DNA of 64,000 bases from a virus. Positions 12,412-28,024 of the stretch are shown piece after piece (within the stretch, counting starts at the first letter, position 1; the number at the start of each line of letters is the position of its first letter). Location: IMG/VR virus record IMGVR_UViG_3300023179_000012, one strand, 5' to 3'. The notes under the pieces were generated by a model. It worked only from the letters and a program-made list of their open reading frames with translations, was not told where the DNA came from and did no database searches. Made by a program: the position numbers and the translations under genes.

Positions 12412-12458
12412 GTGGAAACCGCCGTAGGTTATTCCCTCTTTCCCTACGGCGGCTCCAC
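12412..12458. terminator. GC-rich hairpin after the DUF932 gene (terminator or processing site)
   Basis: CCGCCGTAGG/CCTACGGCGG 10-bp stem; no clear U-tract. Confidence 0.45.
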
Positions 12459-12476
12459 TATCTCCACGAAAGAGCA

Positions 12477-13421
12477 TCAGATTGCGTTGGCAAACTCTAG
12501 AGCAGATTCCAACGCCTTATTATTATCATTGGCATTTTGACCGAACCACAAACTATCAAGGCGATTATCAGTGGTGCGACCCTTACCATAGTTCAGATAT
12601 TCATTGAACCCGTTATAGGCGGCCCACCAAGTACCGCGAACATTAGCCGCAGTCTGTTTCGGGCCTTCGATACGAGCCAGAATATCATCCATAATATTAC
12701 GGGTACGAGTCTTAATATCCTCGTCAGCACCCTTAATATTCAGGACAACCTTAACATACTTCTCAATATCCTTCTGGTTGAAACTCTTGCTAGCAAGGAA
12801 CCGATACTGTTCCGCAGTAGCCTCAAAACCAGCGTTAATATTATCCATAATATCGCGGACTTGTTCCAGATTCTTCTGGCTGGAGCGAGTGTGGCGAATA
12901 CGGATCAGTTTGCTATCATTATGCTTGTGAGCATACGACAGCGTGTTCACGCAGACCACGCGAATCGGAGTGTATCCGACACGAATAGCCGTTGTACCGT
13001 CGTGACTATTACTCAGCAGGATAAACTTGCTAACCTCATCACCCGGAACAATCTCGCTATTATCTCGGTTGAGTTGAGCAAGCACCCAGACCTTTTGACC
13101 GAGATGCAGCGATCCGGCAGTATGGATCGAACACTCGTTAGCGTCGAGGAAAGGCTGGAACCAATCAAACGCATCCTTATTCTGGAGCGGAGTATAACGA
13201 GGGCCGACAACGCCAAGGATGCTGCCATCGCTCTTGCGATAGGTCGCACGATGGTTCACAGGCGTACCGTCAACGGTCTGCAAATCCTTCAGACCTACTT
13301 CCCAATCCAGACCAGCAGCGACGATAGCATCATTCACATTGATACCCTCGTCAACGCTATTGCCAAGGCCATGCCAAGGCGTCTCACCAACAAACATCAT
13401 CTTTTCAACAGCAGCAGGCAT
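12477..13421 (-). CDS. DUF932/DUF945 family phage/plasmid-like protein (TIGR03299-like)
   Basis: MPAAVEKMMFVGETPWHGLG start; LLSNSHDGT; PIRVVCVNTL. Confidence 0.9.
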   Translation of the reverse strand: MPAAVEKMMFVGETPWHGLGNSVDEGINVNDAIVAAGLDWEVGLKDLQTVDGTPVNHRATYRKSDGSILGVVGPRYTPLQNKDAFDWFQPFLDANECSIHTAGSLHLGQKVWVLAQLNRDNSEIVPGDEVSKFILLSNSHDGTTAIRVGYTPIRVVCVNTLSYAHKHNDSKLIRIRHTRSSQKNLEQVRDIMDNINAGFEATAEQYRFLASKSFNQKDIEKYVKVVLNIKGADEDIKTRTRNIMDDILARIEGPKQTAANVRGTWWAAYNGFNEYLNYGKGRTTDNRLDSLWFGQNANDNNKALESALEFANAI

Positions 13422-13584
13422 AACTAACTCCTTCGTGTTTAACTTCTTCGTTCCGATGCACTGATTCTACCATCTAGTATCGTCTAGTCAAGCGGCAAAA
13501 CTTGTGAAAAAATTTTTTTGTTCTAAGTCATTGATTGGCAAGTACTTACGCTTCGGCCGCCGCCACCAACTGGACGTAAGTCCT

Positions 13585-14088
13585 TTAGTGATCTAGGTTT
13601 AGGAGCGGAACCCCGAGATCACGCTTGCAGAGTTTAGAACCATCCTCATCATTACGATAAGCACATTCGTTAGGCAGATAGCAATACACACCAACACAAT
13701 GAGAACACGAGTATTCATCCTTGATTACTTTTTTAATATGTTTTACGGTTCCACCAGAACAGATTAAATCGTCTAATATAATATATTGAAAAGGGGCCAC
13801 TCCCTCGGTACGAAACTCTGAATAGCATTGTTCCCCCTTTCTTACCACAACAATATTCTTGTTGAGTAACTCTGCGATTTGTGGAACCACCATCAATCCA
13901 CTTACACCGCAGCAGGCAATACTATCAAAGTCTTTGGCAATCTTTCGCAGATCACACACGGCCTTAATAATAATCTTATTTCTAGCCTTATGATTTAAAA
14001 CGTGACAGGTATGGCTAGCACCCTGAATATATTTTCCTTCTGTAGTTTTACGAACATCCTCAATCTGATTATTCAAAATATTGGTCAT
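13585..14088 (-). CDS. type I phosphoribosyltransferase
   Basis: PRPP-binding loop IILDDLICSGGT; upstream VVVRK. Confidence 0.85.
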   Translation of the reverse strand: MTNILNNQIEDVRKTTEGKYIQGASHTCHVLNHKARNKIIIKAVCDLRKIAKDFDSIACCGVSGLMVVPQIAELLNKNIVVVRKGEQCYSEFRTEGVAPFQYIILDDLICSGGTVKHIKKVIKDEYSCSHCVGVYCYLPNECAYRNDEDGSKLCKRDLGVPLLNLDH

Positions 14089-14093
14089 AAAAA

Positions 14094-14184
14094 CGATGGA
14101 CGGCCGGATTCGAACCGACTAAGAAAGGAAAGATAAAGCGATATGCTTATAATAGAATACTTGTCCCACCAAGTTGCATCCATC
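14094..14184 (-). ncRNA. tRNA-like RNA with 8-bp acceptor stem and canonical T arm but no anticodon arm
   Basis: GATGGATG/CGTCCATC, ACTTG/CAAGT D-like stem, GTCGG-TTCGAAT-CCGGC, G discriminator. Confidence 0.55.
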
Positions 14185-14197
14185 AGACGAGAAAGGG

Positions 14198-14365
14198 CTA
14201 TTCGTTATCTAGTTCATCCACTACATTATGATAATAGTGTTCGTACTCTTTTTCATCCTCAAAATCATCATAATCTGGTTCGTCAGAATAGTCAGCATAA
14301 TCATAGAGTTCTTCTGAATCTTCCACAATACGATCATAATCAAACTCATATTCATTTTCAAACAT
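14198..14365 (-). CDS. highly acidic small protein
   Basis: 25 of 55 residues D/E; start moved to MFENEY because the longer ORF overlaps tRNA-Lys. Confidence 0.6.
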   Translation of the reverse strand: MFENEYEFDYDRIVEDSEELYDYADYSDEPDYDDFEDEKEYEHYYHNVVDELDNE

Positions 14366-14416
14366 AGCCACTTTCTCCTTTTCCACTATCATACACCAAC
14401 GAACACGATTGTCAAG

Positions 14417-14487
14417 TAGGGGCCGAAGGTAACGCTCCTTCTTCAATAGATTAAAAGTCTATTGCATCACTTTAATGCTTGACCCCC
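14417..14487 (-). tRNA. tRNA-Lys(UUU), atypical T loop
   Basis: Cloverleaf; anticodon loop CTTTTAA; T loop AGCGTTA. Confidence 0.8.
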
Positions 14488-14591
14488 GCGAGGAAATCCA
14501 TTATACCAAGTATTATCGGTTTGTCAAGACCAAAAACTTGAATCTTTCGCTGACTATCGCCAAGACTGCAAATCCGAAGGATAGGGTAAAA

Positions 14592-14662
14592 CAAAGGCGG
14601 AGGGAATCGAACCCTCATCTACGGTTTTGGAGACCGTCATTCTACCGTTGAACTACGCCAAT
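14592..14662 (-). tRNA. tRNA-Trp(CCA), two acceptor-stem mismatches
   Basis: Loop CTCCAAA; T arm GAGGG-TTCGATT-CCCTC; acceptor ATTGGCG/CGCCTTT. Confidence 0.8.
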
Positions 14663-14813
14663 GTTCGTAACTCAGACCGTCAGCCTCCGGTTTGCTATCA
14701 TACTCTATTATCGACAAGAAGCAAGTGAATTCTTTAGTTTTTCTAAGTCTAATCGTACCAAGCACTTATAACTATATCGCGCCGCCATATTTTACCTAAG
14801 TCCTTTATCTATA

Positions 14814-14884
14814 AGCGGATAGAGAGAATCGAACTCTCGTCAACTGATTGGAAATCAGTGGCTCTACCATTGAGCTACATCCGC
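14814..14884 (-). tRNA. tRNA-Gly(UCC)
   Basis: Canonical cloverleaf; loop TTTCCAA. Confidence 0.95.
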
Positions 14885-14887
14885 AAA

Positions 14888-14974
14888 CGGAATCTGAGGG
14901 ATTCGAACCCCCGGAGGATTTTAACCCTCGGCGGTTTAGTAAACCGCTGCCTTAAACCACTCGGCCAAGATTCC
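14888..14974 (-). tRNA. tRNA-Ser(ACU)
   Basis: Long variable arm, GGA acceptor start, G73; loop TTACTAA. Confidence 0.9.
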
Positions 14975-14977
14975 AAA

Positions 14978-15049
14978 CTGGCTCGGTAGGACTCGAACCT
15001 ACAACCGGGCGGTTAACAGCCGCCAGCTCGACCATTGAGCTACGAGCCA
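14978..15049 (-). tRNA. tRNA-Asn(GUU)
   Basis: Canonical cloverleaf; loop CTGTTAA. Confidence 0.95.
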
Positions 15050-15052
15050 ATA

Positions 15053-15123
15053 TTCCGGGACTACGATTTGAACGTAGAATAAAGGATCCAAAGTCCTCTG
15101 TGATACCGTTTCACCATCCCGGA
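15053..15123 (-). tRNA. tRNA-Gln(UUG)
   Basis: Cloverleaf; loop CTTTGGA; T loop TTCAAAT. Confidence 0.9.
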
Positions 15124-15124
15124 G

Positions 15125-15196
15125 AGCCGACAGAGGGAATCGAACCCCCGACAGGTTGTTTACAAAACAACTACTCTACCACTGAGTTACGTCGGC
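15125..15196 (-). tRNA. tRNA-Thr(UGU)
   Basis: Canonical cloverleaf; loop TTTGTAA. Confidence 0.95.
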
Positions 15197-15198
15197 AA

Positions 15199-15399
15199 TC
15201 ATTCATTCATCCCTTTAAGGATTCCAACAATAACAGCCACTCCAAATAAAATACCCAAACCACCAGCACTAAAACACGCTGATACAATCATAAATCCAAG
15301 AACTATCATTACTAAAGTGCCACAACCATTATTATCTGATGGTGGTAATCGTCTGGCATCTCTACCAGCGTCTCGCCAAAGTCCATACGGGAAATACAT
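15199..15399 (-). CDS. small membrane protein
   Basis: Two hydrophobic segments. Confidence 0.55.
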   Translation of the reverse strand: MYFPYGLWRDAGRDARRLPPSDNNGCGTLVMIVLGFMIVSACFSAGGLGILFGVAVIVGILKGMNE

Positions 15400-15406
15400 A
15401 TTTCAC

Positions 15407-15595
15407 CTAAATATCATACTCGTTACGCCATAGTTTGTCAATAGCGTTTCGTGTACGGAGCCGCTTGGGCCTGTTGTCCATAGTTGTATCTCGGTATTCC
15501 TTGTGTCCCGTAGGCACTTCCCACGGTTTCTTGACCTTGATTTTGATAACTTTGCGGCGTCGTGGAATATCGTCGTTGTTCTGGAGCGTAATCAT
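15407..15595 (-). CDS. basic small protein, DNRPKRLRTR family copy 1
   Basis: WEx..GH and DNRPKRLRTR shared with 24177-24347. Confidence 0.7.
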   Translation of the reverse strand: MITLQNNDDIPRRRKVIKIKVKKPWEVPTGHKEYRDTTMDNRPKRLRTRNAIDKLWRNEYDI

Positions 15596-15794
15596 GCCAT
15601 TGTCCGTTTTCGTGAAGATAAAATACTTTGTCTACATTAGGATCGTAAGCCATTAAACAATATTGTATAGGATGCTTTACTGGCGTCAAATGCTTTTGTA
15701 TTATGGGTATTTTGATATCACCCTTTTGATAATCCTTTAATCCAGTATACGCTAGCCCTAAGACAGCAACCACTACGCCAATCCATTGTATCAT
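15438..15794 (-). CDS. membrane-anchored hypothetical protein
   Basis: N-terminal TM helix; its tail overlaps 15407-15595 in another frame. Confidence 0.5.
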   Translation of the reverse strand: MIQWIGVVVAVLGLAYTGLKDYQKGDIKIPIIQKHLTPVKHPIQYCLMAYDPNVDKVFYLHENGQWHDYAPEQRRYSTTPQSYQNQGQETVGSAYGTQGIPRYNYGQQAQAAPYTKRY

Positions 15795-15948
15795 ACCATT
15801 TCCTTTTGTCAATCGTCGCTTCATAGATAGTTTATCGACCACGACGAGAAAAAACTTTAATCGTTCCTAAGTCATTGATTTGCAAGTACTTAGGATTAGA
15901 TGGCCGGGCCGCCCTTGTCCTAAGTCGTTTAGGATCAAGGGGTTACGA

Positions 15949-16191
15949 TTATTCATTATCGTCGCGGCTTAGTTCCCATCCTGCGGCTCTCACAATACTT
16001 TTTGTAGAGATTACATTAGTTTTAGAATCAGCACTAATATAGTCTCTATATCCACGTTCATCAGCATAAAAATATTCATCAATAATATCAAACTTATTAG
16101 TCATTAGCAGTCCCGTGATACTAGCCTCAAGAGCATCCTTACGACTAATAACAACTTCAAGAGTATTACTCTTTACATAAAACTTAGGCAT
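15949..16191 (-). CDS. hypothetical protein
   Basis: Stop 2 nt from the 80-bp repeat. Confidence 0.6.
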   Translation of the reverse strand: MPKFYVKSNTLEVVISRKDALEASITGLLMTNKFDIIDEYFYADERGYRDYISADSKTNVISTKSIVRAAGWELSRDDNE

Positions 16192-16357
16192 GGTTCATCT
16201 CCGTTCCCAAATACTTCATATCCTCATCACAATCCGCACAAACCGGCGTACCAGTATCTTGATACCACCACGGCGTTACATTGATTTCATCCTCACAAGA
16301 AACACAACGCCAAACGTGACGGATTTTAGTATCATCAATAACTTGCCAGATTTCCAT
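16184..16357 (-). CDS. zinc-ribbon small protein (not in ORF track, 57 aa)
   Basis: Hand translation MEIWQVID..CVSC..CADC..; fills the gap in the operon. Confidence 0.65.
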   Translation of the reverse strand: MEIWQVIDDTKIRHVWRCVSCEDEINVTPWWYQDTGTPVCADCDEDMKYLGTEMNHA

Positions 16358-16365
16358 GATAACTC

Positions 16366-17070
16366 CTAGTGGGCAGGAAAGAGAACATTAGCCAGACCGC
16401 GAACACACAAGTCACACGATATACTATCCTTCGTGCCAGTGCAAGTAATAACAGACCGACCACGACGAATCTCGGGACAAGTTACAAACTTTGTGCCGTT
16501 CAGCACAACCAGTTTCGGCAAAGATTTACGCCAAGCCTCGGCCTTGATTTTGCTCTTGGGTCGCTTGGGTGCAATCTTCATATCGCTATCACACCATGCA
16601 AACTTTTTGAAACCTTGTGCAAGAGCCTCACCCATATCATTATCATCATGCACACTAGCATATACATTCATATACTTTTCCAGACTAACAAGCCGGGAAT
16701 CGTAGATATGAGTATAAAACCACATATCGGGCAGCGTGTCACCATCGGCAAGAATACTCTCACACGCCCACGTTACATTAGCAACATAGTCTAGGTCAAG
16801 TTCGCCATTGAGAAACCAGTCGCCACGCTCATGCCAGCGAATAGACTTTTTACGCTTTTTGGCGTCCAGAATCATAGCACGGATTTTGTTTTTCTCCGTG
16901 ACTACGTTAGCAAAACCAGCAACGCGAGCATTTTTATACTGATTCTCGGTAGCCTCGGCATAGCATCCATTATTGAGATAGTCACAGTCTGGAGGGCAAG
17001 TATCGCCAACCGGACGCGAAACCACAATGCAACCCTTACCCAACTTATCGTTACCGTCTGCTGTTTTCAT
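16366..17070 (-). CDS. GP88-like Cys-rich (radical-SAM-like Fe-S) protein
   Basis: TCPPDCDYLNNGCYA, IRWHERGDW, WFYTH, C-terminal CP..C..C..C. Confidence 0.6.
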   Translation of the reverse strand: MKTADGNDKLGKGCIVVSRPVGDTCPPDCDYLNNGCYAEATENQYKNARVAGFANVVTEKNKIRAMILDAKKRKKSIRWHERGDWFLNGELDLDYVANVTWACESILADGDTLPDMWFYTHIYDSRLVSLEKYMNVYASVHDDNDMGEALAQGFKKFAWCDSDMKIAPKRPKSKIKAEAWRKSLPKLVVLNGTKFVTCPEIRRGRSVITCTGTKDSISCDLCVRGLANVLFPAH

Positions 17071-17231
17071 GGCTTTCTCCCTTGGTCTACCGATTCTACA
17101 TTATAGTATCGGCACGGTCAAGCGAAAAACTGTGATAAAAATATTTTTGTTGTAAATCCTTGTGGCATCAGCACTTAGAGCAAAACCGGCCCTCCGAATT
17201 CGTCATAAGTCCTTATGCTTCAATAACTTAG

Positions 17232-17305
17232 CGAGAGCGACGGGACTCGAACCCGCAACCTCTAGCGTGACAGGCTAGCGATCTAACCGATTGATCTACG
17301 CTCCC
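17232..17305 (-). tRNA. tRNA-Asp(GUC)
   Basis: Canonical cloverleaf; loop CTGTCAC. Confidence 0.95.
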
Positions 17306-17676
17306 GAATTATAAATTATGATACCAGCATGTATTTCACTATGACAATTTTTACATACTAATATACATTTATCTAATTCTTTTTTTATTTTAGTTTCATT
17401 TTTAGAGAATGACGTATTCTTTATCTTACTTATATTAAAATCTTTTTTAGATGGATGAATATGATGAAAATCTAAAGATCCAATATATTTATTATATCCA
17501 CATATAATACAAGAACTACCCTTATATTCAACACATTTTGCCTTAAAGGCTCTCTGTCGATCTAGAGTATTCTGATGATTACACTTCCTACAATAACTTT
17601 GTATTTTCCCCTTACGATTACCAGATTTTACCTTATATGGTTTCTTTTCTATTTGACCACATTTTACGCATTTCAT
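17296..17676 (-). CDS. HNH endonuclease (putative homing endonuclease in tRNA cluster)
   Basis: CIICGY..LDFHHIHP..KCILVCKNCHSEIH; N-terminal CxxC..CxxC. Confidence 0.85.
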   Translation of the reverse strand: MKCVKCGQIEKKPYKVKSGNRKGKIQSYCRKCNHQNTLDRQRAFKAKCVEYKGSSCIICGYNKYIGSLDFHHIHPSKKDFNISKIKNTSFSKNETKIKKELDKCILVCKNCHSEIHAGIIIYNSGA

Positions 17677-17729
17677 ATTTTACCTCATGGATAGAATCTA
17701 AATATCTATCCATATTATACACCAATAAA

Positions 17730-17802
17730 TACTGCCGGAAGGATTTGCACCCTCGTGAGTCAACTTAGAAGGTTGATGCCTAATCTACTCGGCCACGGCA
17801 GC
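17730..17802 (-). tRNA. tRNA-Arg(UCU), atypical T loop
   Basis: Loop CTTCTAA; T loop TGCAAAT. Confidence 0.85.
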
Positions 17803-17866
17803 ATAAAACCGATAGCCGCCAGTTATTCACCAGCGGTCTATCGGATATTATAACATTATATTATGC

Positions 17867-18121
17867 TCAGGCAACAGCCTCGGCTTCCGATTCAACCTTG
17901 CCATTATGAGCATCCCCAGCCTGCTTCGCAGTCACACCAGTGACCCTAGCACGCCATACCTTATAACCCTGCTCGCTAAAAGCCTTGACTTCTCCAGCCT
18001 TGACGTTAGCATGAACGTCGCTGGGCAGAGCATCGGTCAGACAGGTGGAGATCGAATCCACCACAACCTCACGGTCAAGATCATCGGCAACAATATCAAC
18101 AACAAAAGAAAACTTCTTCAT
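17867..18121 (-). CDS. hypothetical protein
   Basis: Start set at MKKFSF, downstream of promoter 18254-18281. Confidence 0.6.
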   Translation of the reverse strand: MKKFSFVVDIVADDLDREVVVDSISTCLTDALPSDVHANVKAGEVKAFSEQGYKVWRARVTGVTAKQAGDAHNGKVESEAEAVA

Positions 18122-18394
18122 GGTAAAACCTTTCCAAGTAATAGTAGTAAACCCAACAAACACATTATACAAGAACCACAATCGCTTGTCAAGTTGCCAA
18201 TCCGAACTTTCTTAGTGTTGGGATCGGTTGGTCGCTTGTCTTGCGATGCTATCAGTATACCATTGTTATCGTCATTGTCAACAGCGGCTCGTGAATGTTT
18301 TTTTGCTTTTTTCCTAAATCATTGAACCATAAGCACTTACGTCAAAATCCCGCCGCCGTCCTTGCTCTAAGTCCTTTAGTAGCAAGGCTTTAAG

Positions 18395-18769
18395 TCAAGA
18401 GAGATAACCCTCACAACCCAAAGAGGTCAGATCACGCAGCAACCCTTCAGCCGCGTCGGGAGTCTTAGCGGTGAGAGTGATGGGATTACCACCACCAATC
18501 AAGAAGCCGCCAGCGTCCCACCGACCCACCATACCATCGGTCCAATCCTTCGATTCCTTGAGTCCCCAGCCGGTGTGCTGTCGAACAGCCTTGATGCAAG
18601 AGATACGGTTGTCCAAATCCATACCCTTGGTGATCGTAACCATTCGACGCTGGTTCACACCCAAGACCATCTCAAAAGCCTGCGTGATACGCTCTCTAAT
18701 ATCCTCCCTAGCATAGAAAGAAAGTTCCATAGCCTCACGAACACTCAGTTGCAGATTGATCATATTCAA
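18395..18769 (-). CDS. ribosomal protein bL12 (L7/L12) C-terminal domain-containing protein
   Basis: RISCIKAVRQHTGWGLKESKDWTD matches KIxVIKxVRxxTGLGLKEAKDLVE; PITL..AEGLLRDLTSLG follows. Confidence 0.8.
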   Translation of the reverse strand: MNMINLQLSVREAMELSFYAREDIRERITQAFEMVLGVNQRRMVTITKGMDLDNRISCIKAVRQHTGWGLKESKDWTDGMVGRWDAGGFLIGGGNPITLTAKTPDAAEGLLRDLTSLGCEGYLS

Positions 18770-19191
18770 ACCCTTTCTTCCAAAATGTAAACTTGTTTGC
18801 CGTTAGTTAATAGAGTAGCATACTCGCTACCGTCCCAAATGAATTCGTTATTGTCGCTTTCTCGTCGCCAGTGCGGATCACGAAGTGGATTATAAAACAA
18901 CTTCTCAAGATTGTCAACAGGCAGAGCGGGATAAAAATCCTTCCTCAACATAACTTCTTCACATCTTACCCACCCACTAACATCATGCACACCAGCCTCA
19001 AACACCTGTTTAGCCTTATTCGGCCTATTCCACAACTTACAACCCCGCATCTCTAACTGATATTTTTTGGGGTCAACGTAGTATACATCAACTGTTTCCC
19101 CACCCTGCTTAACCTTTATTTGCCAGTGCATATAATGCTGGCCATTACTCAGGTGAAATCGAACTTCGCCATGTAGTTTGTTCTGTTTCAT
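18766..19191 (-). CDS. conserved phage hypothetical protein
   Basis: VRFHL..YMHWQIK..DP..YQLEM..C.L.N pattern. Confidence 0.6.
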   Translation of the reverse strand: MKQNKLHGEVRFHLSNGQHYMHWQIKVKQGGETVDVYYVDPKKYQLEMRGCKLWNRPNKAKQVFEAGVHDVSGWVRCEEVMLRKDFYPALPVDNLEKLFYNPLRDPHWRRESDNNEFIWDGSEYATLLTNGKQVYILEERV

Positions 19192-19605
19192 GCTTATACT
19201 ATACCTTATCGACCAATCGTTGTCAAGACCTTTAAACTTTCGCTGACTACAGCCACTCTAGCCAAATCCGAAGGATTAGGAGAAACAAGGCTGGCTTCCG
19301 CCATACTCGACCAGCATTTCAGATAGCCTCTTTTGATATCATTGTGGCTATCCCCAAGCCTTGCTCCCTAAGTCTACCAGTATTATCGGCGTTTGTCAAA
19401 TGGATTCTTTAAAAAATCCTAAGTCGTTACTGGATAAGCACTTAGATCAAATTCGCGGCCGCGGCCTCGTCGTAAGTCCTTTAATACCAATCACTTAGGT
19501 GCCACCAACCACAAGTACCACACCAGTACCACCACACACCATACTTATCTAGCCTATATGCCATATCATTGTTTTCACCACACACACAAATATCACTAAG
19601 AGTTT

Positions 19606-19860
19606 TCATGTTGGATAATCCTCTGGATAATCTGTTGCTGGTCGCTCTGGTTTTGGTTGACCCTCGTATGGCATCCACCACGGAGCATCCATACGATCCA
19701 CAAGACCGGGACTTTCTTCACAAATAAGAATATGCGGACTCACAGGATCATCACGATGAATCTCATACCGTCCACGCCACACACCAATATCTGGCCCAAA
19801 GTAGTAAACCTTCTGGCCGTTGATAGGGCGACGATAACCAAAAAAACTAAGCCATTCCAT
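19606..19860 (-). CDS. hypothetical protein
   Basis: Packed minus-strand ORF. Confidence 0.55.
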   Translation of the reverse strand: MEWLSFFGYRRPINGQKVYYFGPDIGVWRGRYEIHRDDPVSPHILICEESPGLVDRMDAPWWMPYEGQPKPERPATDYPEDYPT

Positions 19861-19863
19861 TAT

Positions 19864-20106
19864 TTAGCCCTCCCTACGTTTTCCGGTAGCCCTTGTAATA
19901 ATCAAGCACTGAGTACCAGTATCATTATCCGTAAACTTCACACACTCATGAGGCCCATAATACCAAACATCATTCTTTGAGAAGTTGAACACAATCTCTT
20001 CGGTTTTCAGATCGGTATCATTATACCCACCCTCATACCCAAGAGTCAATACCCTCATATCAGCCGGATAGTTTTTCAACTGCTCAATCAGTTCATTAAC
20101 GGTCAT
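19864..20106 (-). CDS. hypothetical protein
   Basis: MTVNELIEQLKNYPADMRV start typical of small phage proteins. Confidence 0.65.
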   Translation of the reverse strand: MTVNELIEQLKNYPADMRVLTLGYEGGYNDTDLKTEEIVFNFSKNDVWYYGPHECVKFTDNDTGTQCLIITRATGKRREG

Positions 20107-20278
20107 TTTTACCTCCCATCGTCCCTATAAAGCATCCACCAAGAGGCTGGCATATAACCTTCGTTAGCGAGTCGTGTGCTTTGCTCTCTAGTTTCACCAC
20201 ATGCTCGCCAACACAAATAGCGAACTTCCCAACTATCGTTTTCAGGAAACTGCGGAAATGTCCAGTATGGATCACTCA

Positions 20279-20542
20279 TTATTCATCCTCCGATGGAAAC
20301 AGTTCATCCCAATGACTAGGGCTAATGCCAGACAGCAGAATCTCACGATCATCCGCACTAAGATGCGGAAAACAGTTTTGGATACTCTCTCCATTTATCC
20401 AACGATTAGCATCGCTCAGTTTGGTAGTTATACTGAACGGATGATTATCGAATAGACACTCTCCAGAGAAAGTTATATTTTCACCATCAGCACTAACGCT
20501 ACGAGTAACCCGGTCAGAAAAAGCAAATCGTGTTCCAAGCAT
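20279..20542 (-). CDS. conserved phage hypothetical protein
   Basis: IQNCFPHLSADDREILLSGISPSHW motif; downstream of promoter 20563. Confidence 0.65.
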   Translation of the reverse strand: MLGTRFAFSDRVTRSVSADGENITFSGECLFDNHPFSITTKLSDANRWINGESIQNCFPHLSADDREILLSGISPSHWDELFPSEDE

Positions 20543-21133
20543 ATGTTCTCTCCTTTGGTTGTATTCTACTATCTAGTATCGGCTCTGTCAATAGGGAAAC
20601 TTGAAGAGATTTTGCTTACCATAAAGCGTTTTTGCGTAAGCACTTGCGTCAAAGCCGCGGCCTCCACCTCTCCGTAAGTCCTTACGGGACAAGGCTTTAT
20701 AAAAACCAGCGAATCTTTTACGCCCCGATTCTATTACCCATATGGCAACCCTGTTACGGACCATAGGAAACCGCCCACGGAAACCTTCCTAAGATTGGTC
20801 ATGACTCAATCTATCTGGCTCTTGGGGACGGTTACTGGTTGTGTTGCTTCGCAACTTATATTGTGTGGTATTCTTGTGTGTACTAAAAAATACCCAAAAA
20901 ACCTATACTGGGAAACGGCTATCCAGTACTTGCCGACGATTTTTAACTTTTCATTGACAGAATCAGTAAAACTGTATGTTGGTCGTGGTGAGGACGCGAT
21001 CCCCCATAGATTGGTACTTCTATCCAACGTATAACCCCGTTGGCAACTCCCCCAGTCTTTCAGAGAAAGTTTATCGAAATAGGTTATCCCAATCTAGTCC
21101 TAGGCATGGACCCACGAAAGTTTGTATTGTCAA

Positions 21134-21232
21134 GGGCGAAGGATGGAATCGAACCACCTCTAAGCATTTGGTTGCCTACTCCACCAGTTTGGTGTCTCGG
21201 ACTTCTCGTGCTACCATTACACTACATTCGCC
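21134..21232 (-). ncRNA. tRNA-like RNA (D and T arms intact, expanded irregular anticodon region)
   Basis: TA-GTGT-AATGGTA-GCAC D arm; GGTGG-TTCGATT-CCATC T arm; GGCGAA/TTCGCC acceptor pairing. Confidence 0.55.
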
Positions 21233-21238
21233 ATATTT

Positions 21239-21364
21239 TAGGGACGGATGGATTCGTTGATGCTTTGGCGTCACAGGCAACTGCCTCAGCCCGCGCTCTC
21301 AACTTGACCATCTACTTCACTGCCGTTTTACCGGGAAGTTGCTCACGCAACCTAGCAGTCCCTA
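21239..21364 (-). ncRNA. putative structured ncRNA module
   Basis: Closing stem TAGGGAC/GTCCCTA; internal GTTGC-GTGA-GCAAC, GATGG/CCATC, GTTGA/TCAAC, AGGC/GCCT; just downstream of promoter 21396. Confidence 0.5.
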
Positions 21365-21544
21365 TTGTATTGTCAATGATCGGCTGAACTCTTGTATTCT
21401 ACAGTCTATTATCGACCTGTCAATAGGGTTTTCTTGAAAAAATATTTTTTAACGTAAGATATTGAGAAGCAAGCACTTACGACGATCCCGGCCCGGCGAG
21501 TTTGCCCTAAGTCCTCTTGTGCTAAGAACTTAGAGCGAACCCTT

Positions 21545-21727
21545 TTAGTAGTCGGCCTCAATAGGCTCATCACACCTATAGTTAGAATCTATCAAAACTT
21601 CTGGACGAAACTTGCTCAGTTTCTCGTCTCTGCAATCCACACAAACCCGTGCCAGCGGAATACCCCTAGCATCGCTCTCCCACCAACTATTCTTTTGAGA
21701 TCCACACGGACAATACTTTGTTATCAT
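21545..21727 (-). CDS. small zinc-binding hypothetical protein
   Basis: CPC...CVDC. Confidence 0.6.
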   Translation of the reverse strand: MITKYCPCGSQKNSWWESDARGIPLARVCVDCRDEKLSKFRPEVLIDSNYRCDEPIEADY

Positions 21728-22206
21728 GCTTGTACCTCGTCATCAGAAAAAAAGTTTTCCATGTCGAACTCATTCCATAAAGCAACAGGAATCATATCCT
21801 TACTCTTATACTCAATATAGTTGTCAACTCCATTATCATAGAGTCCACAAAAAGACATACCCGGCTCGAAATAGGATGCTTTTACATTGTATCCCAAATC
21901 TACCAGTTCGTTATACAGTCCAATAGGAGGACTCCAAGCAGAGTCAAAAGAACAACTAGCCTGATTACCAACAACAGTAGCCTTCAAGCCGTGCCATTCT
22001 TCTCGTTCCGTACCCTCGTCAGCCCCAATATCCCACTTTACTCCCCAGTTATTCACACAAAAATCCCACCAACCATCGCCAATATCTGCGGGCATAGGAA
22101 TAAACTCGTTACACACAGTTCCCTTGTTGTATGTTTTCACAAATCGGTCGAGCATAGAGGGATCGGAGTGTTCAACGGTCAACTTGTTCAAGCACCAGTT
22201 AGGCAT
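21724..22206 (-). CDS. DUF1281/YubB (Api92-like) ferredoxin-fold protein
   Basis: MPNWC.N; NWGVKWD; FDSAWSPP; YFEPGMSFCG. Confidence 0.75.
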   Translation of the reverse strand: MPNWCLNKLTVEHSDPSMLDRFVKTYNKGTVCNEFIPMPADIGDGWWDFCVNNWGVKWDIGADEGTEREEWHGLKATVVGNQASCSFDSAWSPPIGLYNELVDLGYNVKASYFEPGMSFCGLYDNGVDNYIEYKSKDMIPVALWNEFDMENFFSDDEVQA

Positions 22207-22213
22207 ATTATCC

Positions 22214-22447
22214 TCAGTTAGTAGTAGTGGTCAAAGCAGAATACTTACCATCACGCCTAGCAGCCTCAAGAGCATCACAGAAAAAATCACTAAAATCTTC
22301 CATAACGCTCAAAGCATCTTCTCTAGTACCATCCAGAATAGCATCAGTAAATACTATCACAAAATCAGCAACCCGCTCACGAACCATCACAATCTCTTTT
22401 TTGCTCAACATCTCTCTCCCCTTTTCAATCTTTATACCAAAACCCAA
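22214..22447 (-). CDS. hypothetical protein
   Basis: Minus-strand ORF after tRNA-Glu. Confidence 0.45.
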   Translation of the reverse strand: MGFGIKIEKGREMLSKKEIVMVRERVADFVIVFTDAILDGTREDALSVMEDFSDFFCDALEAARRDGKYSALTTTTN

Positions 22448-22458
22448 TCCGTTGTCAA

Positions 22459-22531
22459 TAGCCCCACGGAGGATCGAACTCCGATCTCCGGGATGAAAGC
22501 CCGGTATACTAAACCATTATACTATGGGGCC
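22459..22531 (-). tRNA. tRNA-Glu(UUC)
   Basis: Cloverleaf; loop CTTTCAT. Confidence 0.9.
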
Positions 22532-22828
22532 GAGACTCGCTCAATCCAAATATAGTCACCATATTTAGCCTGTGCTTTTTTCATAGCATCAAACTCGCTC
22601 AAAGCGACAATGTAGCCAGCAAACTTATTGTTTGCAAATACACGCCAAGTATAACCAGCATAGCAGTTAGCAGTAGTCATAGCGTTATTCTAATCTATTA
22701 TCGGCACTTGTCAAGAGAAGTCTTTAGTTTTTCTAAGTTGTTGCAGTATAAGGACTTACAACAAATCCGGCCCCGCAGCCATGCCCTAAGTCCTTGTTTA
22801 ACAAAGACTTAGAGCAACTGGCCGAGAA

Positions 22829-23239
22829 TCAGAACAGAAGACTAGCAAGGCCGGTTTTGAACGCGACCCCACCAAGGAGGGGACGACGCACATTGCGTGT
22901 ACGCTCCGCGTAGAAGTTGCGAATCTTACCGTCCGGAGTTTGAGCAGTCACAAGATGACGGCTACGCTCAAAGTTCGGATCATTTCTACGATACCTACTT
23001 TTACTATTCAGTCGAGCAAGATAATCGTCAGAAAATCGGTGAACACCAATAACCCTAGCCATAAAACGTTCAGGATCACCAGTAACAGGCTGCACATATT
23101 CAAAGTTATAAACACCACCAACCCTAGCATTTGTCAGACTATCACGAAGACCACTATACAGATGGAAAACGCTAAAAGCCACAATGCCAGAAACCGCACC
23201 AACAACCGCACACAAACCAATCAGAACTTCGTTAGTCAT
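22829..23239 (-). CDS. membrane-anchored protein, possible WYL-like domain
   Basis: N-terminal TM; YNFEY...DGKIRNFYAERTRNV resembles the WYL RxFxxDRI end. Confidence 0.45.
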   Translation of the reverse strand: MTNEVLIGLCAVVGAVSGIVAFSVFHLYSGLRDSLTNARVGGVYNFEYVQPVTGDPERFMARVIGVHRFSDDYLARLNSKSRYRRNDPNFERSRHLVTAQTPDGKIRNFYAERTRNVRRPLLGGVAFKTGLASLLF

Positions 23240-23331
23240 CAGACACCCTTTCGTTGTGAAAATCAAACACCTAGTACGCACATTCTACAGTATTATCGTC
23301 GTGTGTCAAGCCCAAACTTTAGAGATTTTGG

Positions 23332-23637
23332 TCACTCGCCATCATCATAATAGCCGTAACCATCATCACTATGAAAATCCTCACAACAGTCTACATCTTC
23401 GCCAAAATAACCGTAATCCTCATCGGTTCCCCATCCAGCGGAAGACAATGCACTCTCAGTATCGCCATCCATACTATCATCATACGAATCATCCCAACTG
23501 TTCTCCAACTCCTCGCCATCAATCTCGCCGTAAAAATCATTGTAATCGTCATAGTTCGACGCATCAACATCATCAGCGTAGTTCATATCATCCTCATAAG
23601 AGTTATCGGGATCGAACAGGGGGTCAGGATGGCTCAT
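23332..23637 (-). CDS. extremely acidic protein (PDPL family copy 1)
   Basis: 37 of 101 residues D/E, no K or R; start set below promoter 23664. Confidence 0.7.
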   Translation of the reverse strand: MSHPDPLFDPDNSYEDDMNYADDVDASNYDDYNDFYGEIDGEELENSWDDSYDDSMDGDTESALSSAGWGTDEDYGYFGEDVDCCEDFHSDDGYGYYDDGE

Positions 23638-23802
23638 CTTAGGTTTCTCCGTTGTGTGATCCGATTCTATATCTATTATCGACGTTGTCAAGTGTAGAAC
23701 TTTAAAAATATCTTTTTTGTTCTAAATCCTTATATAGCAAGTACTTACGATTCGCCCGGCGGCGCCACTCTAACGTAAGTCCTTATTTTCCAAAGAGTTA
23801 GA

Positions 23803-24093
23803 TTATTTGAGAATATATTCTATTTCTTGTCCATTCGCAATCATAGCAGCATATATCTCAATACGCTTATCTTTCTCCCGTTTCTCAATCTGATGGTCGG
23901 TTTCTGTTACATCACGAGAATCGCACTTTCGCTCAAGATCAGCCAGGGTAACACCATCGGTACGATGGTCACGAAAATCCTCCGGCAACCACGAGTTAGG
24001 CACCACCACAATATCCCGCACAACTCGCTCAAACTCAGCAATCAGTTCATAACCGTTCATTTTCTTCTCCTTGGTTGTGAGGCAGTCTATCAA
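23803..24093 (-). CDS. hypothetical protein
   Basis: Stop 1 nt from repeat; true start is probably MNGYEL. Confidence 0.6.
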   Translation of the reverse strand: MIDCLTTKEKKMNGYELIAEFERVVRDIVVVPNSWLPEDFRDHRTDGVTLADLERKCDSRDVTETDHQIEKREKDKRIEIYAAMIANGQEIEYILK

Positions 24094-24176
24094 AATCTTT
24101 TTGGCTTGTCAACAGCAAAATCCCACTTTTTCGCTGACTACAGCCACACTGACCAAATCCGTAGGATTGGCTGAGA

Positions 24177-24347
24177 CTAATCGAAATCTCTCATAGCCTG
24201 TCGCTTCTGGTCACTGCGAGTGCGAAGTCGCTTGGGTCGGTTGTCGTGCTGACCAGATCCAGACATATGGCTAGAATGACCCTTACCCATCTCCCACACT
24301 GGACGAATGTTCAGCCGAATCGCGTCGTATTTCTTTCGCTTGCTCAT
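24177..24347 (-). CDS. basic small protein, DNRPKRLRTR family copy 2 (not in ORF track, 56 aa)
   Basis: Hand translation MSKRKKYD..WEMGKGH..DNRPKRLRTR.. Confidence 0.7.
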   Translation of the reverse strand: MSKRKKYDAIRLNIRPVWEMGKGHSSHMSGSGQHDNRPKRLRTRSDQKRQAMRDFD

Positions 24348-24751
24348 ACTCGTATCCTACCATATATTATCGGCTAGTCAATAGAGAATCTTTATTTTTC
24401 TAAGTCTTTGATACACAAGTACTTACGAAAAAATCGCCGCGCCCGGCTCGACGTAAGTCCTTGCCGGGGTTAGAGTTACGAGTTAACCACCCATGCGGCA
24501 GCACACCCAACAACAAAACTTATTACAAATACGCAAATATCCAAAACTTTCATTCTTTTCCCCTTATAGGATAAACCAAATCACGAACACTATAACTAGC
24601 AAACACACCGATAATAAATCCCACACCGATTTGTACCCAGTTAATATCGGCCATCCCTAGCCCCTTTCTTAAATGTTTTTCCCGTACTCAATAATAGCAC
24701 ACATTACTCCTGCAAAAATAATCAGGAATAGCATACTAATAAAATAACCCA

Positions 24752-25060
24752 TCACGATACCACCATCCCATCAATAAAAGGGTATTCCTTACCATTAATC
24801 TTAACATACCAAGTAAAATCCCTCTGGTAAACCCGTACCGGGCTATACTGGTTAATCCTATCCTTAGTGGTAACAGTTTGCCAACCCCCACTATTAAGGG
24901 TATAGGTGCCATCATCCCGAATCTTTACAACGTATGTACTGTGCAACTTAATAGCCACAGTATTATCGCTCAGGATTTCCGCATAGGTATTATTACCAAT
25001 CTTTCGGCTATCCTTATTCCGCTTGCCACGAACCATCTTAATCGCTTCGGCGTGTGTCAT
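24752..25060 (-). CDS. conserved phage hypothetical protein
   Basis: KIGNNT...LH.T.V...TLNSGGWQTVTTKDRINQY pattern. Confidence 0.7.
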   Translation of the reverse strand: MTHAEAIKMVRGKRNKDSRKIGNNTYAEILSDNTVAIKLHSTYVVKIRDDGTYTLNSGGWQTVTTKDRINQYSPVRVYQRDFTWYVKINGKEYPFIDGMVVS

Positions 25061-25241
25061 TTTCTTTTCTCCTTACTTCTATTATCGGTATTTTACAGGC
25101 TAAACTTGAGAAAGTCAAGAAAATAATCCTGTGCCAAATGCGAATATTTTTTAGAATGTCCTAAGTCCTTATGGGGCAAGTACTTACGCAAAAATCGCCA
25201 CGGCCCCCGCGTCATAAGTCTTTACGCGGAAAGGCTTTATG

Positions 25242-25523
25242 TCAACTGTTCAACTGTTCAGCCATAACTTTACCCGGCTTGAATCGCACCACACGCCGCT
25301 GTCCGATCATCACGGCTTCGCCCGTGCGAGGATTGCGGGCCTTGCGAGGTGCGGTCACCTTTACGGTGAACACCCCGAAGTTTCGCAGTTCGATGCGTCC
25401 AGTTTCGACCAGCGTTGCTATCATATTGTCCAGAGTAGCCTGCACGATCTCGCGTGCCTGCTGACCCGTAACGCCAACCCGCTCCGCAACCTGTTCGACC
25501 ATACCACGCTTCGTTCCGATCAT
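25242..25523 (-). CDS. HU/IHF-family DNA-binding protein
   Basis: GRIELRNFGVF..K..APRKARNPRTGE..FKPGK. Confidence 0.92.
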   Translation of the reverse strand: MIGTKRGMVEQVAERVGVTGQQAREIVQATLDNMIATLVETGRIELRNFGVFTVKVTAPRKARNPRTGEAVMIGQRRVVRFKPGKVMAEQLNS

Positions 25524-25573
25524 TTCACTTTCTCCGTTGTGATGTTTCTATTCTACAGCCACTATTCTAAAAA

Positions 25574-25750
25574 TCAAGAGCAAAAATCTGCTGGCTCGGG
25601 ATACATTTCTTCCCACAACCCAGTCACTTCGGCATAATCAAACGGGTCGCAATCAACCTCGTCGATAGGTTCGACCATAGGCTCGATCATACCATCGTCA
25701 GCGAGTTGAGAGAGGATAGCGTTGATGGTATCGGTGTCATCGAGGATCAT
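25574..25750 (-). CDS. acidic small protein (not in ORF track, 58 aa)
   Basis: Hand translation MILDDTDT..; 17 D/E, no K or R; below promoter 25779. Confidence 0.65.
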   Translation of the reverse strand: MILDDTDTINAILSQLADDGMIEPMVEPIDEVDCDPFDYAEVTGLWEEMYPEPADFCS

Positions 25751-26042
25751 ATCGTTTCTCCGTTGGGGTGATGCGATGATTCTACAGTTATTATCGACAA
25801 ATGCAAGCCCACACCTTGAGAATAATCCTATGCCAAACTAAAAATATTTTCTGACACGGTATTTTCTTGGATCATTTTCTCTAAGTGCTTGTGCAGAAAG
25901 GACTTAGGAAAAATCCGGCCCGGCGTCCTCGCCGTAAGTCTTTACGGATCAAGGACTTGCGTCATTATTTAGATAACACGCAATAACATAGGCCAACATA
26001 ACTAATAATAAATGTAAGTGCAGCAAGCATTATAATATTCCT

Positions 26043-26231
26043 TTATTTGGCGTGAATAAATACGTTTTTACTAGCGGTCTGATTTGTTACAGTCACAATC
26101 CAGTTTTTTCCGCTACCATCTTCCCGAAGAATACCGTTGATGATACCAACGTGTACATTACCCTTGGGATCAGTAACAGTGCCATACTTTCCAGACCGCA
26201 TAGCACTCATAATCTTATCAAGACTATTCAT
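26043..26231 (-). CDS. hypothetical protein
   Basis: Minus-strand ORF in unit. Confidence 0.55.
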   Translation of the reverse strand: MNSLDKIMSAMRSGKYGTVTDPKGNVHVGIINGILREDGSGKNWIVTVTNQTASKNVFIHAK

Positions 26232-26245
26232 TATACTATAACCTT

Positions 26246-26446
26246 TCAGTTAGCGTTAGCAGGCTCAAAAATATCCAGAACATTACACTTGTCAACATAG
26301 ATTGAACGATATCCATGCTCACACTTGACGGTGAGAAGAATACGCTCTCCAAACTGACGCACCCTAGTCACAACGCCGTCAACAACCTCTCCGTTGTTAT
26401 ACTCGGCATGAACAGCATAACCAGCCATGGGAACCTTACTCGTCAT
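26246..26446 (-). CDS. hypothetical protein
   Basis: First ORF below promoter-like region 26470. Confidence 0.55.
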   Translation of the reverse strand: MTSKVPMAGYAVHAEYNNGEVVDGVVTRVRQFGERILLTVKCEHGYRSIYVDKCNVLDIFEPANAN

Positions 26447-26680
26447 TCTACCCTTTCTTTCTCTCTTCTATTATCGACATTATACAGGCGATTCTTTAGG
26501 TTGCAAGCAAAATCTTTGGATTTTTGTGTCAAGATTTTTTGACAAAACTTTTCTGTTTTTCGGTATGGTTTGGCATACCGTTTGCTGATGCGATTTTCCC
26601 TAAGTCGTTACGCTGTAAGTACTTACGTCAAATTCGCTGCGCCCATATCGTCGTAAGTCCTTACGCCGTATGGGTTTGCG

Positions 26681-26866
26681 TCAACTCTGTCCCGGATAGA
26701 TTCTTCCGCTCTTGAGTCGCTGTACAAGCGTATCGTAATCGTCAGTCGTGAACAGCGTATAATAAGCATCCCGCTCCTGCACGATCCACTTGCGAGTGTA
26801 TCCGTTCCACACACTAGCCACGACCACACCGAGAGAGTTAGCCAGAGATACGATTTCAGCATTCAT
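26681..26866 (-). CDS. hypothetical protein
   Basis: Stop 1 nt from repeat; start MNAEIV. Confidence 0.55.
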   Translation of the reverse strand: MNAEIVSLANSLGVVVASVWNGYTRKWIVQERDAYYTLFTTDDYDTLVQRLKSGRIYPGQS

Positions 26867-26868
26867 TT

Positions 26869-27084
26869 TCAAGATACTCCCATCCAAGATGCTTTTTCCA
26901 CACAGTAATCATAGAATATATCGTTCAAAACTTCAAGATGGTTTTTTTCGGTCAAACGACGACGAGCAAGGATAGCATCGCACTCTGCGAAAAACTTACC
27001 CGTGGACACTTCATATACAATCGTACACGCATACGATTCGCTTCCCCAAATCCTAGCCTTAACATCAACGAACTTCTTCAACAT
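26869..27084 (-). CDS. hypothetical protein
   Basis: Minus-strand ORF in unit. Confidence 0.55.
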   Translation of the reverse strand: MLKKFVDVKARIWGSESYACTIVYEVSTGKFFAECDAILARRRLTEKNHLEVLNDIFYDYCVEKASWMGVS

Positions 27085-27323
27085 CTGTTTTCTCCTCTTC
27101 TCTCTTCTATTATCGACATTCTATCAGACTTTCTTCAACATTTCAAGAGGGCAAAAAAGATTTTTGTAGCAGCAAATATCGTGCCAATCATAAGTCGTTG
27201 TCTGATAAGCACTTAGGCACAAGTCGTGCCGCCGAGTTCGACGCAAGTCCTTACGCCACAAGGATTTACGTCGAATTGTTGTACAGTAGTGTACAGGCTT
27301 ATATCCCCATAATAGGGGGCTTA

Positions 27324-27647
27324 TTACCCCTCCCACCCAAAGGGGGATACTTCCTCACCGCAAGCCTGAATAGCGGCATACTGTTCGATTAGAGCCTCTA
27401 CACGTTCACGCGATCCAGGTTTGCCAACCTTCACGATCATGGTATCCTCACCACCAACCATGCGAGAATCTACCTTCTCGCTCTTGCTCTTGCCGATATT
27501 CTTCAATGCGGTGCGATTGAACTTCAGCACCTTTTCGCTGCGAATCGTTCCACCATCTGCGTTAGTTTTGTCGCAAGGGATAGCGATACCAACGAAGCAC
27601 ATACGGGCAACTCGCTCAGCATCACGAACAATCTTAGGCTTTTTCAT
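27324..27647 (-). CDS. hypothetical protein
   Basis: Purine-rich leader, plausible composition. Confidence 0.6.
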   Translation of the reverse strand: MKKPKIVRDAERVARMCFVGIAIPCDKTNADGGTIRSEKVLKFNRTALKNIGKSKSEKVDSRMVGGEDTMIVKVGKPGSRERVEALIEQYAAIQACGEEVSPFGWEG

Positions 27648-27707
27648 TTTCTTTCTTTCTCCTTTGGATGATGGATCGTACTAAACTTTTCCCTGTGACG
27701 CAACCCC

Positions 27708-27956: not shown

Positions 27957-28024
27957 CTCTATCTCTCTTTCTCTTTCCAGTATTATACCAAACTTTTTCG
28001 ACAGCACAACCCCCACAACGGGGG

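Follow-up and report, generated by a model that had tools for sequence, protein, structure and literature searches.

The early region of a freshwater phage was found to carry an array of 80-nt elements that precede near-consensus sigma-70-type promoters, and we propose with moderate confidence that each element is the protein-bound upstream part of a composite early-promoter module, in which element, promoter and downstream genes are inherited together and shuffled by general recombination. The array lies in IMG/VR virus record IMGVR_UViG_3300023179_000012, of which a stretch of 64,000 nucleotides (hereafter the window) was analysed. The phage genome to which the window belongs is large, with a G+C content of 37%; in the window, small genes and nine tRNAs occupy the minus strand over approximately 1-29.3 kb and structural genes (TerL, portal and major head protein) follow on the plus strand from 29.9 kb. 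A hidden Markov model (HMM) built from eleven copies of the element was run against the window with nhmmer; 18 full copies were recovered at 12316-29323, all within 12.3-29.3 kb, and none was detected elsewhere in the 64 kb. The copies share a single polarity and are 60-75% alike. In addition, a pattern search of IMG/VR led to 118 loci, and approximately 290-310 copies were recognised by the HMM across more than 50 of these loci. Contigs of 100-244 kb account for many of the copies, and five complete relatives with direct terminal repeats (200-244 kb) carry arrays; in a complete relative of 199.9 kb, 15 copies lie within 16.5 kb and start ~650 nt past a small helix-turn-helix (HTH) gene.

Architecture of the element and its promoter

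Loci were oriented by a codon model trained on the structural genes of the window, and 211 unique oriented copies gave, in the direction of transcription, the consensus acTTGaC, gTAAAtCCTT N7 AAGGACTTAG GGCaAG gccGGCCGGCCgg TTTGaC GTAAGTCCTT N7 AAcGACTTAC, GaCAA. The element consists of two 37-bp palindromes, each TTGACGTAAGTCCTT-N7-AAGGACTTACGTCAA, whose centres lie 53 bp from each other on either side of a GC-rich core. The palindrome arms are 15 bp each, the inner arms being the best conserved across the 211 copies, and the 7-nt spacers within the palindromes show no conservation. The true repeat proved to be 5 nt longer on each side than first drawn (TTGAC...GTCAA); it has 80-90 bases and four arms (A to D), and the TTGAC of the outer arm mirrors the TTGAC that precedes arm C. 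The consensus also carries stop-like triplets, with TGA at position -3, TAA at 2, TAA at 17 and TAG at 25. Among related loci the spacing from palindrome to palindrome was 53 in 197 cases, and lineage-constant variants were found on more distant IMG/VR contigs, with spacings of 41-42 (L089, L025 and L039), 64 (L016), 72-73 (L007, L058, L010 and L060) and 84. These variants differ by whole helical turns, in steps of about one turn.

Each module follows the same order on the minus strand, namely the element, an A/T tract, a near-consensus sigma-70-type -35/-10 pair, a Shine-Dalgarno (SD) sequence and the start codon. A promoter-like site was predicted downstream of 205 of 292 elements, at a distance of no more than 200 nt, compared with 15% of control windows and 9% on the upstream side. 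In the window, -35 and -10 boxes were readable or scorable behind most of the 18 copies and were weak or unclear at 14823, 25960 and 28464. The distance from the end of the element to the predicted -35 box clustered at 18-19, 29-30, 40 and 63 nt, and a Rayleigh test of 136 such distances gave R = 0.60-0.64 at a period of 10.5-11.

No covariation in support of a folded strand or an RNA hairpin was found. Watson-Crick pairing did not exceed the expectation for independent columns in the global dyad (i, 81-i), in the arm pairs A:D, B:C, A:B and C:D, or in the GC-rich centre. The arms were merely 58-67% complementary, and the centre pairs 34-38:43-47 were Watson-Crick in 47% of cases, without covariation. 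There was no bias of G.T over A.C mismatches, A.C equalling or exceeding G.T on the sense strand. An intrinsic-terminator signature was likewise lacking, with just TTT after the centre and no T-run after arm D, while the element folded with a minimum free energy of -27 kcal/mol compared with -19 kcal/mol for shuffles. Over 12-30 kb of the window, contigs of one RNA-library run bridge several elements, yet they break where contigs of three DNA runs break and may contain DNA. Contig joints were considered as possible cassette deletions and were set aside, their sides being 23-42 nt long and situated at conserved arms or tRNAs; they most likely reflect co-occurring relatives. The element has the features of a protein-bound upstream promoter element, namely half-sites conserved without pairing constraint and phasing both between the sites and with the promoter. 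From this phased geometry and the lack of pairing constraint, we infer that the element is likely an upstream part of the promoter that a protein recognises in double-stranded form.

Further motifs were seen within the modules. The spacer separating the -35 box from the -10 box is itself conserved (TTGACA-N5-CGATAATAGA-N-TAGAAT, for example at 13464-13491, 20563-20591 and 22687-22714), which suggests a second recognition element or an extended or alternative -10. The six promoter-proximal modules (25240-29323) bear extra motifs, read by eye. A sigma-54-like TGGCA(C/T)-N5-(T/C)TGCT on the plus strand points into the element at 26555-26600, 28340-28385 and 29200-29245, and a TTTGGCA(C/T)-N5-ATTAT on the minus strand lies ~40 nt before the -35 box at 25110-25160, 25800-25850 and 29170-29200; the latter also occurs in the relative L063.

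Inheritance and order of the cassettes

A sequence-only reading of the window had proposed that repeat, promoter and cargo genes form one unit, and comparison of orthologous junctions bore this out. At the junctions between gene families 5|14, 7|3 and 21|34 the module was either present or absent, and where present it takes up precisely the stretch between stop codon and ATG. In seven loci 14 nt separate genes 5 and 14, compared with 164 nt in L081, L118 and L061; the 164-nt insert comprises an element, an A/T tract, TTGCAT-N17-TAGAAT and an SD sequence, with the left join reading TAA AC CTAAGT... and the right join falling at the ATG. Between genes 7 and 3, a module occurs in L030 and is absent from ten loci, and between genes 21 and 34 one occurs in L063 and is absent from L006. 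No target-site duplication was detected at the three polymorphic junctions. Furthermore, the variable positions of the element tracked the downstream gene: similarity was 0.67/0.55 for elements that share the downstream gene only and 0.56/0.53 for those that share the upstream gene only, against a baseline of 0.51. Presence or absence of whole modules, together with this tracking, indicates that the unit is the element with its promoter and its downstream genes.

Cassette order was variable at the head of the array. Cassettes with families 13, 11, 26-1, 30 and 7-3 occurred in at least four different orders, and in the window families 7 and 3 are separated by three cassettes. In contrast, families 6 to 19 were collinear in all loci; the fixed cargo order that would have spoken against assembly from units therefore exists in the distal two thirds of the array and does not exist at its head. 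One cargo gene that changes neighbours is gene 11 (24752-25060, minus strand), which matches the T4-like cyanophage protein Kyano_Gp96; across genomes, seven different genes precede it and five different genes follow it. The sequence-only reading had expected such a gene to keep the same junction, and in 6 of 11 loci a distance of 1-3 nt from its stop codon to the following element is indeed retained.

Gene flux was also followed through gene insertions and deletions, and 215 of 410 distinct configurations left the number of elements unchanged, which shows that gene flux is not confined to module boundaries. Whole modules align at 75-77% identity over 140-154 nt with many non-orthologous modules. 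An attempt to map crossovers from the end-points of high-scoring segment pairs of at least 88% identity was abandoned, as the relatives are too divergent and the ends reflect gene divergence.

Gene ends at the repeat edge

The comparison with integron cassettes had rested on genes that end almost exactly at the repeat, and in the window these coordinates were reproduced (all features on the minus strand). Stop codons lie 1 nt from the 80-nt core at four elements. These are 18314-18393, preceded by the family 17 open reading frame (ORF) 18395-18769; 23722-23801, preceded by ORF 23803-24093, which ends in TAA; 25161-25240, preceded by an HU/IHF-family gene (25242-25523); and 26600-26679, preceded by ORF 26681-26887. 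At 18314-18393, 25161-25240 and 26600-26679 the stop is the TGA of the outer TTGAC, and the promoter of 23722-23801 follows 30 nt downstream. The stop of ORF 15949-16191 (family 12, with 15 relatives) is 2 nt before the element at 15867-15946. Two ORFs end 17-18 nt within the core: the PRTase-like gene 13585-14088, whose TAA lies 17 nt inside element 13522-13601 in the region of arm B, with the promoter TTGACT-N16-TAGAAT 30 nt downstream, and ORF 19481-19609/19681, whose TAA occupies core positions 16-18 of element 19419-19498, with a promoter 19 nt downstream. All seven of these edge-ending ORFs have protein-level relatives or a Pfam match. The tRNA-Asp (17231-17305) ends on the first core base of element 17152-17231, whose promoter is 30 nt downstream. 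For the partial element at 14744-14823, arm A was thought to be supplied by the 3' end of tRNA-Gly (14814-14884). The tRNA indeed stands in the place of the arm, but the arm is largely missing, as only ~5-6 of 10 bases match. The 1-nt distance likewise holds against the 80-nt core, but the real repeat starts 5 nt earlier, so that these stops lie inside the outer arm.

At the remaining copies the stop-to-core gap was 11, 16 or 39-70 nt, or no ORF was present. The stop of ORF 21545-21727 is 11 nt before element 21454-21533, that of ORF 22829-23281 is 16 nt before 22733-22812 (promoter 18 nt downstream), that of ORF 27324-27647 (family 1) is 54 nt before 27190-27269, and the nearest ORF to 24400-24479 (24550-24654; promoter 18 nt downstream of the element) stops 70 nt before it. 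Element 25881-25960 is preceded by ATGAC, and no ORF of at least 30 aa ends there. Element 20621-20700 has its promoter 29 nt downstream, and 12316-12395, the last copy in the direction of transcription, has a promoter-like TGGACA-N17-TACAAT 32 nt downstream. The first copy of the array, 29244-29323, was placed by HMM match and alignment. A small hairpin, GTACA-CTAC-TGTAC, stands directly upstream of elements 27190-27269 and 28385-28464 (at 27270-27290 and 28465-28485), between element and ORF stop in the former case; 17 nt of flank are identical between the two window copies, and the hairpin also occurs in L063 at ~3690-3715. At the cassette end adjoining tRNA-Asp, an HNH-like ORF was noted (17296-17676, weak Pfam match), and in L061 a reverse-strand ORF at ~5660-6280, HNH-like by eye, lies between gene 5 and the inserted module. 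These ORFs suggest homing-endonuclease traffic at the same junctions.

Stop-to-core gaps were tabulated in the relatives, after exclusion from the junction and cargo statistics of ORFs that read through the element, which were judged spurious ('cluster 0'). Across 293 elements the gaps formed sharp peaks at +1, +2, -4, -19 and -27. Among 162 elements with a conserved upstream ORF, 24 stops were at +1 (TGA in 21), 17 at +2 and 20 inside the element, and approximately 100 were 3 to 600 nt away. The 41 stops at +1 or +2 exceed the ~2-4 expected from a uniform spread over -27 to +80, but gene-to-gene junctions without an element were equally tight, with 37% at no more than 2 nt (start calls being approximate). 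The peaks at +1, -4, -19 and -27 coincide with stop-like triplets of the consensus, +2 being the exception. TGA was found at the outer TTGAC in 58 of 211 copies (27%) and at the equivalent inner, non-coding place in 63 of 211 (30%); because it is equally common where no gene ends, the TGA belongs to the repeat and is not made by the gene. A +1 or +2 junction occurred in 14 of 36 gene families, and each family retained its own gap across genomes, from -27 to more than 200 nt. The gap was +1 in 9 of 9 orthologues of family 17 and -19 in 8 of 8 of family 22, mostly -27 in the PRTase family, 16-35 in family 2 and more than 140 in family 4. The tendency to abut is strong, but there is no single defined junction, and the proposal that units are assembled at one gave way to gaps specific to each family. 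These results collectively indicate that stops fall at the edge because the module fills the entire intergenic interval of a compact genome and because its consensus carries stop triplets. In a genome without spare bases, the module would span the interval from the upstream stop codon (or tRNA 3' end) to the next ATG, and an ORF that runs up to it would end on the stop-like triplets of the outer arm and the arms. For annotation, this means that stops at the edge of a repeat may stem from repeat consensus and compaction and need not imply site-specific assembly.

Candidate binder, competing explanations and known systems

Just before the first element, on the minus strand at 29519-29740, a gene encodes a small three-helix HTH protein of 74 aa with an AT-hook-like tail (RGRRP). 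It is present in five of five complete relatives, at the head of their arrays. In the window and in L136-L140 it has an invariant MxRRQRRKL and, at its tail, K-x-(R/K)-G-R, which resembles an AT-hook. The predicted structure is a three-helix bundle with a basic RGRRP tail (predicted local distance difference test score, pLDDT, of 80), and Foldseek gave generic three-helix HTH domains only, with no match at E <= 0.001. The assignment of this protein as integrase-SAM-like was rejected, as the Pfam match is weak, below the cut-off and limited to one of seven members. By position and conservation, the HTH protein is a candidate binder of the element. The HU/IHF-family gene at 25242-25523 was also considered as encoding the binder. 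This gene is real (PF00216, E = 5.9e-28, 97 bits), yet it is absent from all five complete relatives and, apart from one partial match, is a singleton among the compared loci; it is better seen as accessory cargo. Recombinases were searched for in the same five genomes, in which no tyrosine recombinase scored above the cut-off and no serine recombinase or Y1 transposase was detected. PF00589 was above the cut-off in none of the five, with one sub-threshold match far from the array, and was absent from the window ORFs scanned; PF01797 (Y1 transposase/RAYT) was found in none of the five.

On the model that we favour, a sequence-specific protein would recognise the four half-sites in double-stranded DNA, probably as one dimer per palindrome, with both dimers cooperating on one face of the helix. 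Once bound, it would act on RNA polymerase at the promoter to switch early units on or off, and it may insulate them as well; a candidate for this role is the HTH/AT-hook-like protein whose gene stands at the head of every array. Element, promoter and downstream genes would be inherited, gained and lost jointly. As the modules share ~150 nt at ~75% identity every ~1 kb, they would most likely be substrates for general rather than site-specific recombination, by which cassettes are permuted and exchanged; the same has been proposed for the promoter-early stem-loop (PeSL) cassettes of T4-type phages (Arbiol et al., 2010, PMC2839356; Comeau et al., 2014, PMC4122927).

Several observations weigh against this model. 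The distal two thirds of the array are collinear across the clade, and about half of the gene-content differences leave the number of elements unchanged. No near-identical paralogous donor of the inserted modules was found, the best non-orthologous match being 77%, and crossover points are unmappable among relatives that are 65-93% identical. Minor distance classes at 34 and 44-45 nt are out of phase, and the distance classes may partly mirror a few ancestral module types that have multiplied, the copies not being independent. In addition, the promoters are consensus predictions, the HTH protein is a co-inherited candidate with generic fold matches, and the HU/IHF gene is missing from the complete relatives. 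The element may also have an additional role at the RNA level, in attenuation or processing.

A less probable account, and an unlikely one, is that the elements are static regulatory sites, either operators or upstream sites, with stops placed by compaction and cassette differences produced by illegitimate recombination and homing-endonuclease traffic. The equally tight spacing of genes without elements, the family-specific gaps, the collinear distal array, the indels that leave element number unchanged and the HNH-like ORFs at cassette ends would all be expected of such sites. However, modules were gained or lost as units at three orthologous junctions, whole cassettes were permuted near the array head, and dispersed 150-nt homologies are what phage recombination systems use (PMC2839356). 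A more elaborate possibility, which we consider improbable, is that the element and a dedicated phage protein (such as the HTH/AT-hook-like one) form a synaptic complex that targets recombination to the module edges; the early region would then be a phage-borne cassette-exchange platform, integron-like in function without a tyrosine recombinase and with promoter-first cassettes. Slightly more improbable still is an RNA-level element, in which the transcribed repeat folds and terminates or attenuates transcription, or directs mRNA or tRNA processing, like a PeSL stem-loop or an RNase III site. Its position at the 3' ends of genes and tRNAs, the dyad symmetry with a folding energy below that of shuffles, the GC-rich centre followed by TTT and the terminator function of PeSL stem-loops (PMC2839356) would fit this account. 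It is opposed by the absence of compensatory changes, whichever pairing scheme is applied and also at the GC-rich centre, by A.C mismatches at least as frequent as G.T on the sense strand, by the lack of a U-tract after the arms and by an element that tracks its downstream gene; moreover, helical phasing with the -35 box and between the palindromes is not needed for RNA folding.

The recombinase-like site suggested by the sequence-only reading found no support. An attC-like or tyrosine-recombinase core site, at which a dedicated recombinase moves cassettes, is very improbable, even though four boxes in the order R''-L''...L'-R' with 7-nt spacers are typical of tyrosine-recombinase core sites and cassettes are permuted and polymorphic for the presence of modules. 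In the five complete relatives no tyrosine recombinase scored above the cut-off and neither a serine recombinase nor a Y1 transposase was found, and the integrase-SAM match of the HTH protein falls short. The element accompanies downstream rather than upstream genes, each cassette has its own promoter, the spacers are not conserved, folded-strand covariation is missing and many gene indels fall inside cassettes. Equally remote is a selfish miniature mobile element (a MITE, short for miniature inverted-repeat transposable element, or a REPIN or Correia-like repeat) that inserts alone into intergenic DNA. Many dispersed copies, terminal inverted repeats (TTGAC...GTCAA) and presence/absence polymorphism are in keeping with such an element; however, the inserts comprise element, promoter and SD sequence at all three junctions without target-site duplication, the copies occupy one 17-kb region in one polarity and are just 60-75% alike, and neither a transposase nor a RAYT was found.

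Comparison with known systems favoured the PeSL cassettes, to which the sequence-only reading had already likened the modules. As in the definition of PeSLs (PMC2839356), the module extends from stop codon to ATG and combines a GC-rich dyad and an SD sequence with an AT-rich tract and a strong early promoter of the sigma-70 type; it recurs densely in a region that is plastic and made up of small orphan genes, and module plus ORFs are the unit of gain, loss and permutation. PeSLs were proposed to offer dispersed homologies to the phage recombination system, and PeSL-PeSL recombination has been reported (PMC2839356). Unlike PeSLs, which are simple G...C stem-loops of variable position, the element is a fixed 80-90-nt array of four 9-15-bp half-sites without hairpin covariation, helically phased internally and with the -35 box, and it belongs to an uncultured non-T4 clade. 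Since neither TerL (25.6% identical to the nearest cultured phage TerL, in Microcystis phage MaeS and Bacillus Basilisk-like phages) nor nucleotide matching places this phage among the T4-type phages, the module is a PeSL analogue and not a member by descent. The PeSL authors themselves likened PeSL+ORFan cassettes to integrons.

The analogy with integrons did not hold for the present module. Like integron cassettes, it shows gene ends that coincide with or fall within a repeated four-box site of imperfect palindromic symmetry, and the cassettes are small, variable and arrayed in a single orientation. In integrons, attC follows the ORF and moves with it, and the cassettes are mostly promoterless behind a single Pc and are moved by the tyrosine recombinase IntI. 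Here the polarity is opposite, as the repeat precedes and moves with its genes; each cassette has its own promoter, and neither an integrase nor a folded-strand signature was found.

Other repeats offer partial parallels. Stoperators of Cluster A mycobacteriophages, reportedly described by Brown and colleagues in 1997 and by Pope and colleagues in 2011, each consist of one asymmetric 13-14-bp site; they are dispersed throughout the genomes of temperate phages and bound by the immunity repressor. The element, as a putative protein-binding site, resembles them in that tens of copies adjoin or overlap stop codons within short gaps between genes and keep a single polarity relative to transcription; in contrast, its paired palindromes are confined to one early region, and each is tied to and phased with a downstream promoter. 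Upstream-activated or repressed strong promoters are known from rrn P1 (UP element and phased Fis sites), phi29 p4/p6 and SPO1 TF1, and small DNA-binding proteins encoded by phages act on many early promoters at once. The module shares with these several phased putative protein sites that lie upstream of a promoter close to consensus and its A/T-rich tract, but the motif is unrelated and no HU/IHF-type protein is conserved across the clade. REP/BIME/REPIN and Correia-type repeats are intergenic palindromic doublets at gene 3' ends, some with promoters or IHF sites. The element is likewise a dispersed intergenic palindromic doublet at gene 3' ends, but it has no RAYT or transposase, occurs in one region only and is always promoter-coupled. 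A literature search for a described equivalent of the element returned nothing relevant. The idea of mobile regulatory cassettes, documented so far for T4-type phages, would thus extend to an unrelated, widespread clade of freshwater phages. The conserved part of the cassette would be a strictly phased DNA element of four half-sites instead of a stem-loop, implying a global regulator of all early promoters, and the module offers a concrete model for the packaging, expression and exchange of orphan early genes in jumbo phages.

The clade is an uncultured, widespread group of 130-244-kb freshwater phages unrelated to the T4 type. DNA of the window occurs in freshwater and lake metagenome runs from eight studies (2011-2022), and when the 14.5-kb region was compared with 50,697 phage records by megablast, a 74-nt tRNA stretch was the sole nucleotide match. 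A scan of 185,579 species genomes with the inner-arm pattern found arrays solely on two short contigs of metagenome-assembled genomes (MAGs), L121 (JBJTKU010000149.1) and L135 (JBILVZ010000050.1), of 17.7 kb and 20.9 kb; the remaining matches were single chance palindromes and gave no clue to the host. The MAG bins (Ca. Planktophila and Methylococcaceae) were discarded as host evidence, as phage contigs are probably mis-binned. Besides the Kyano_Gp96-like gene, cargo families on the minus strand matched GP88/DUF7227 (16366-17070), DUF932 (12477-13421) and NUDIX (11174-11584), and the cargo families together with the TerL of Microcystis phage MaeS hint at a possible cyanobacterial host. A tRNA-Ser whose anticodon, ACT, is unusual was also predicted by ARAGORN, once in the window (14887-14975, minus strand) and once in the complete relative G001 (71670-71755).

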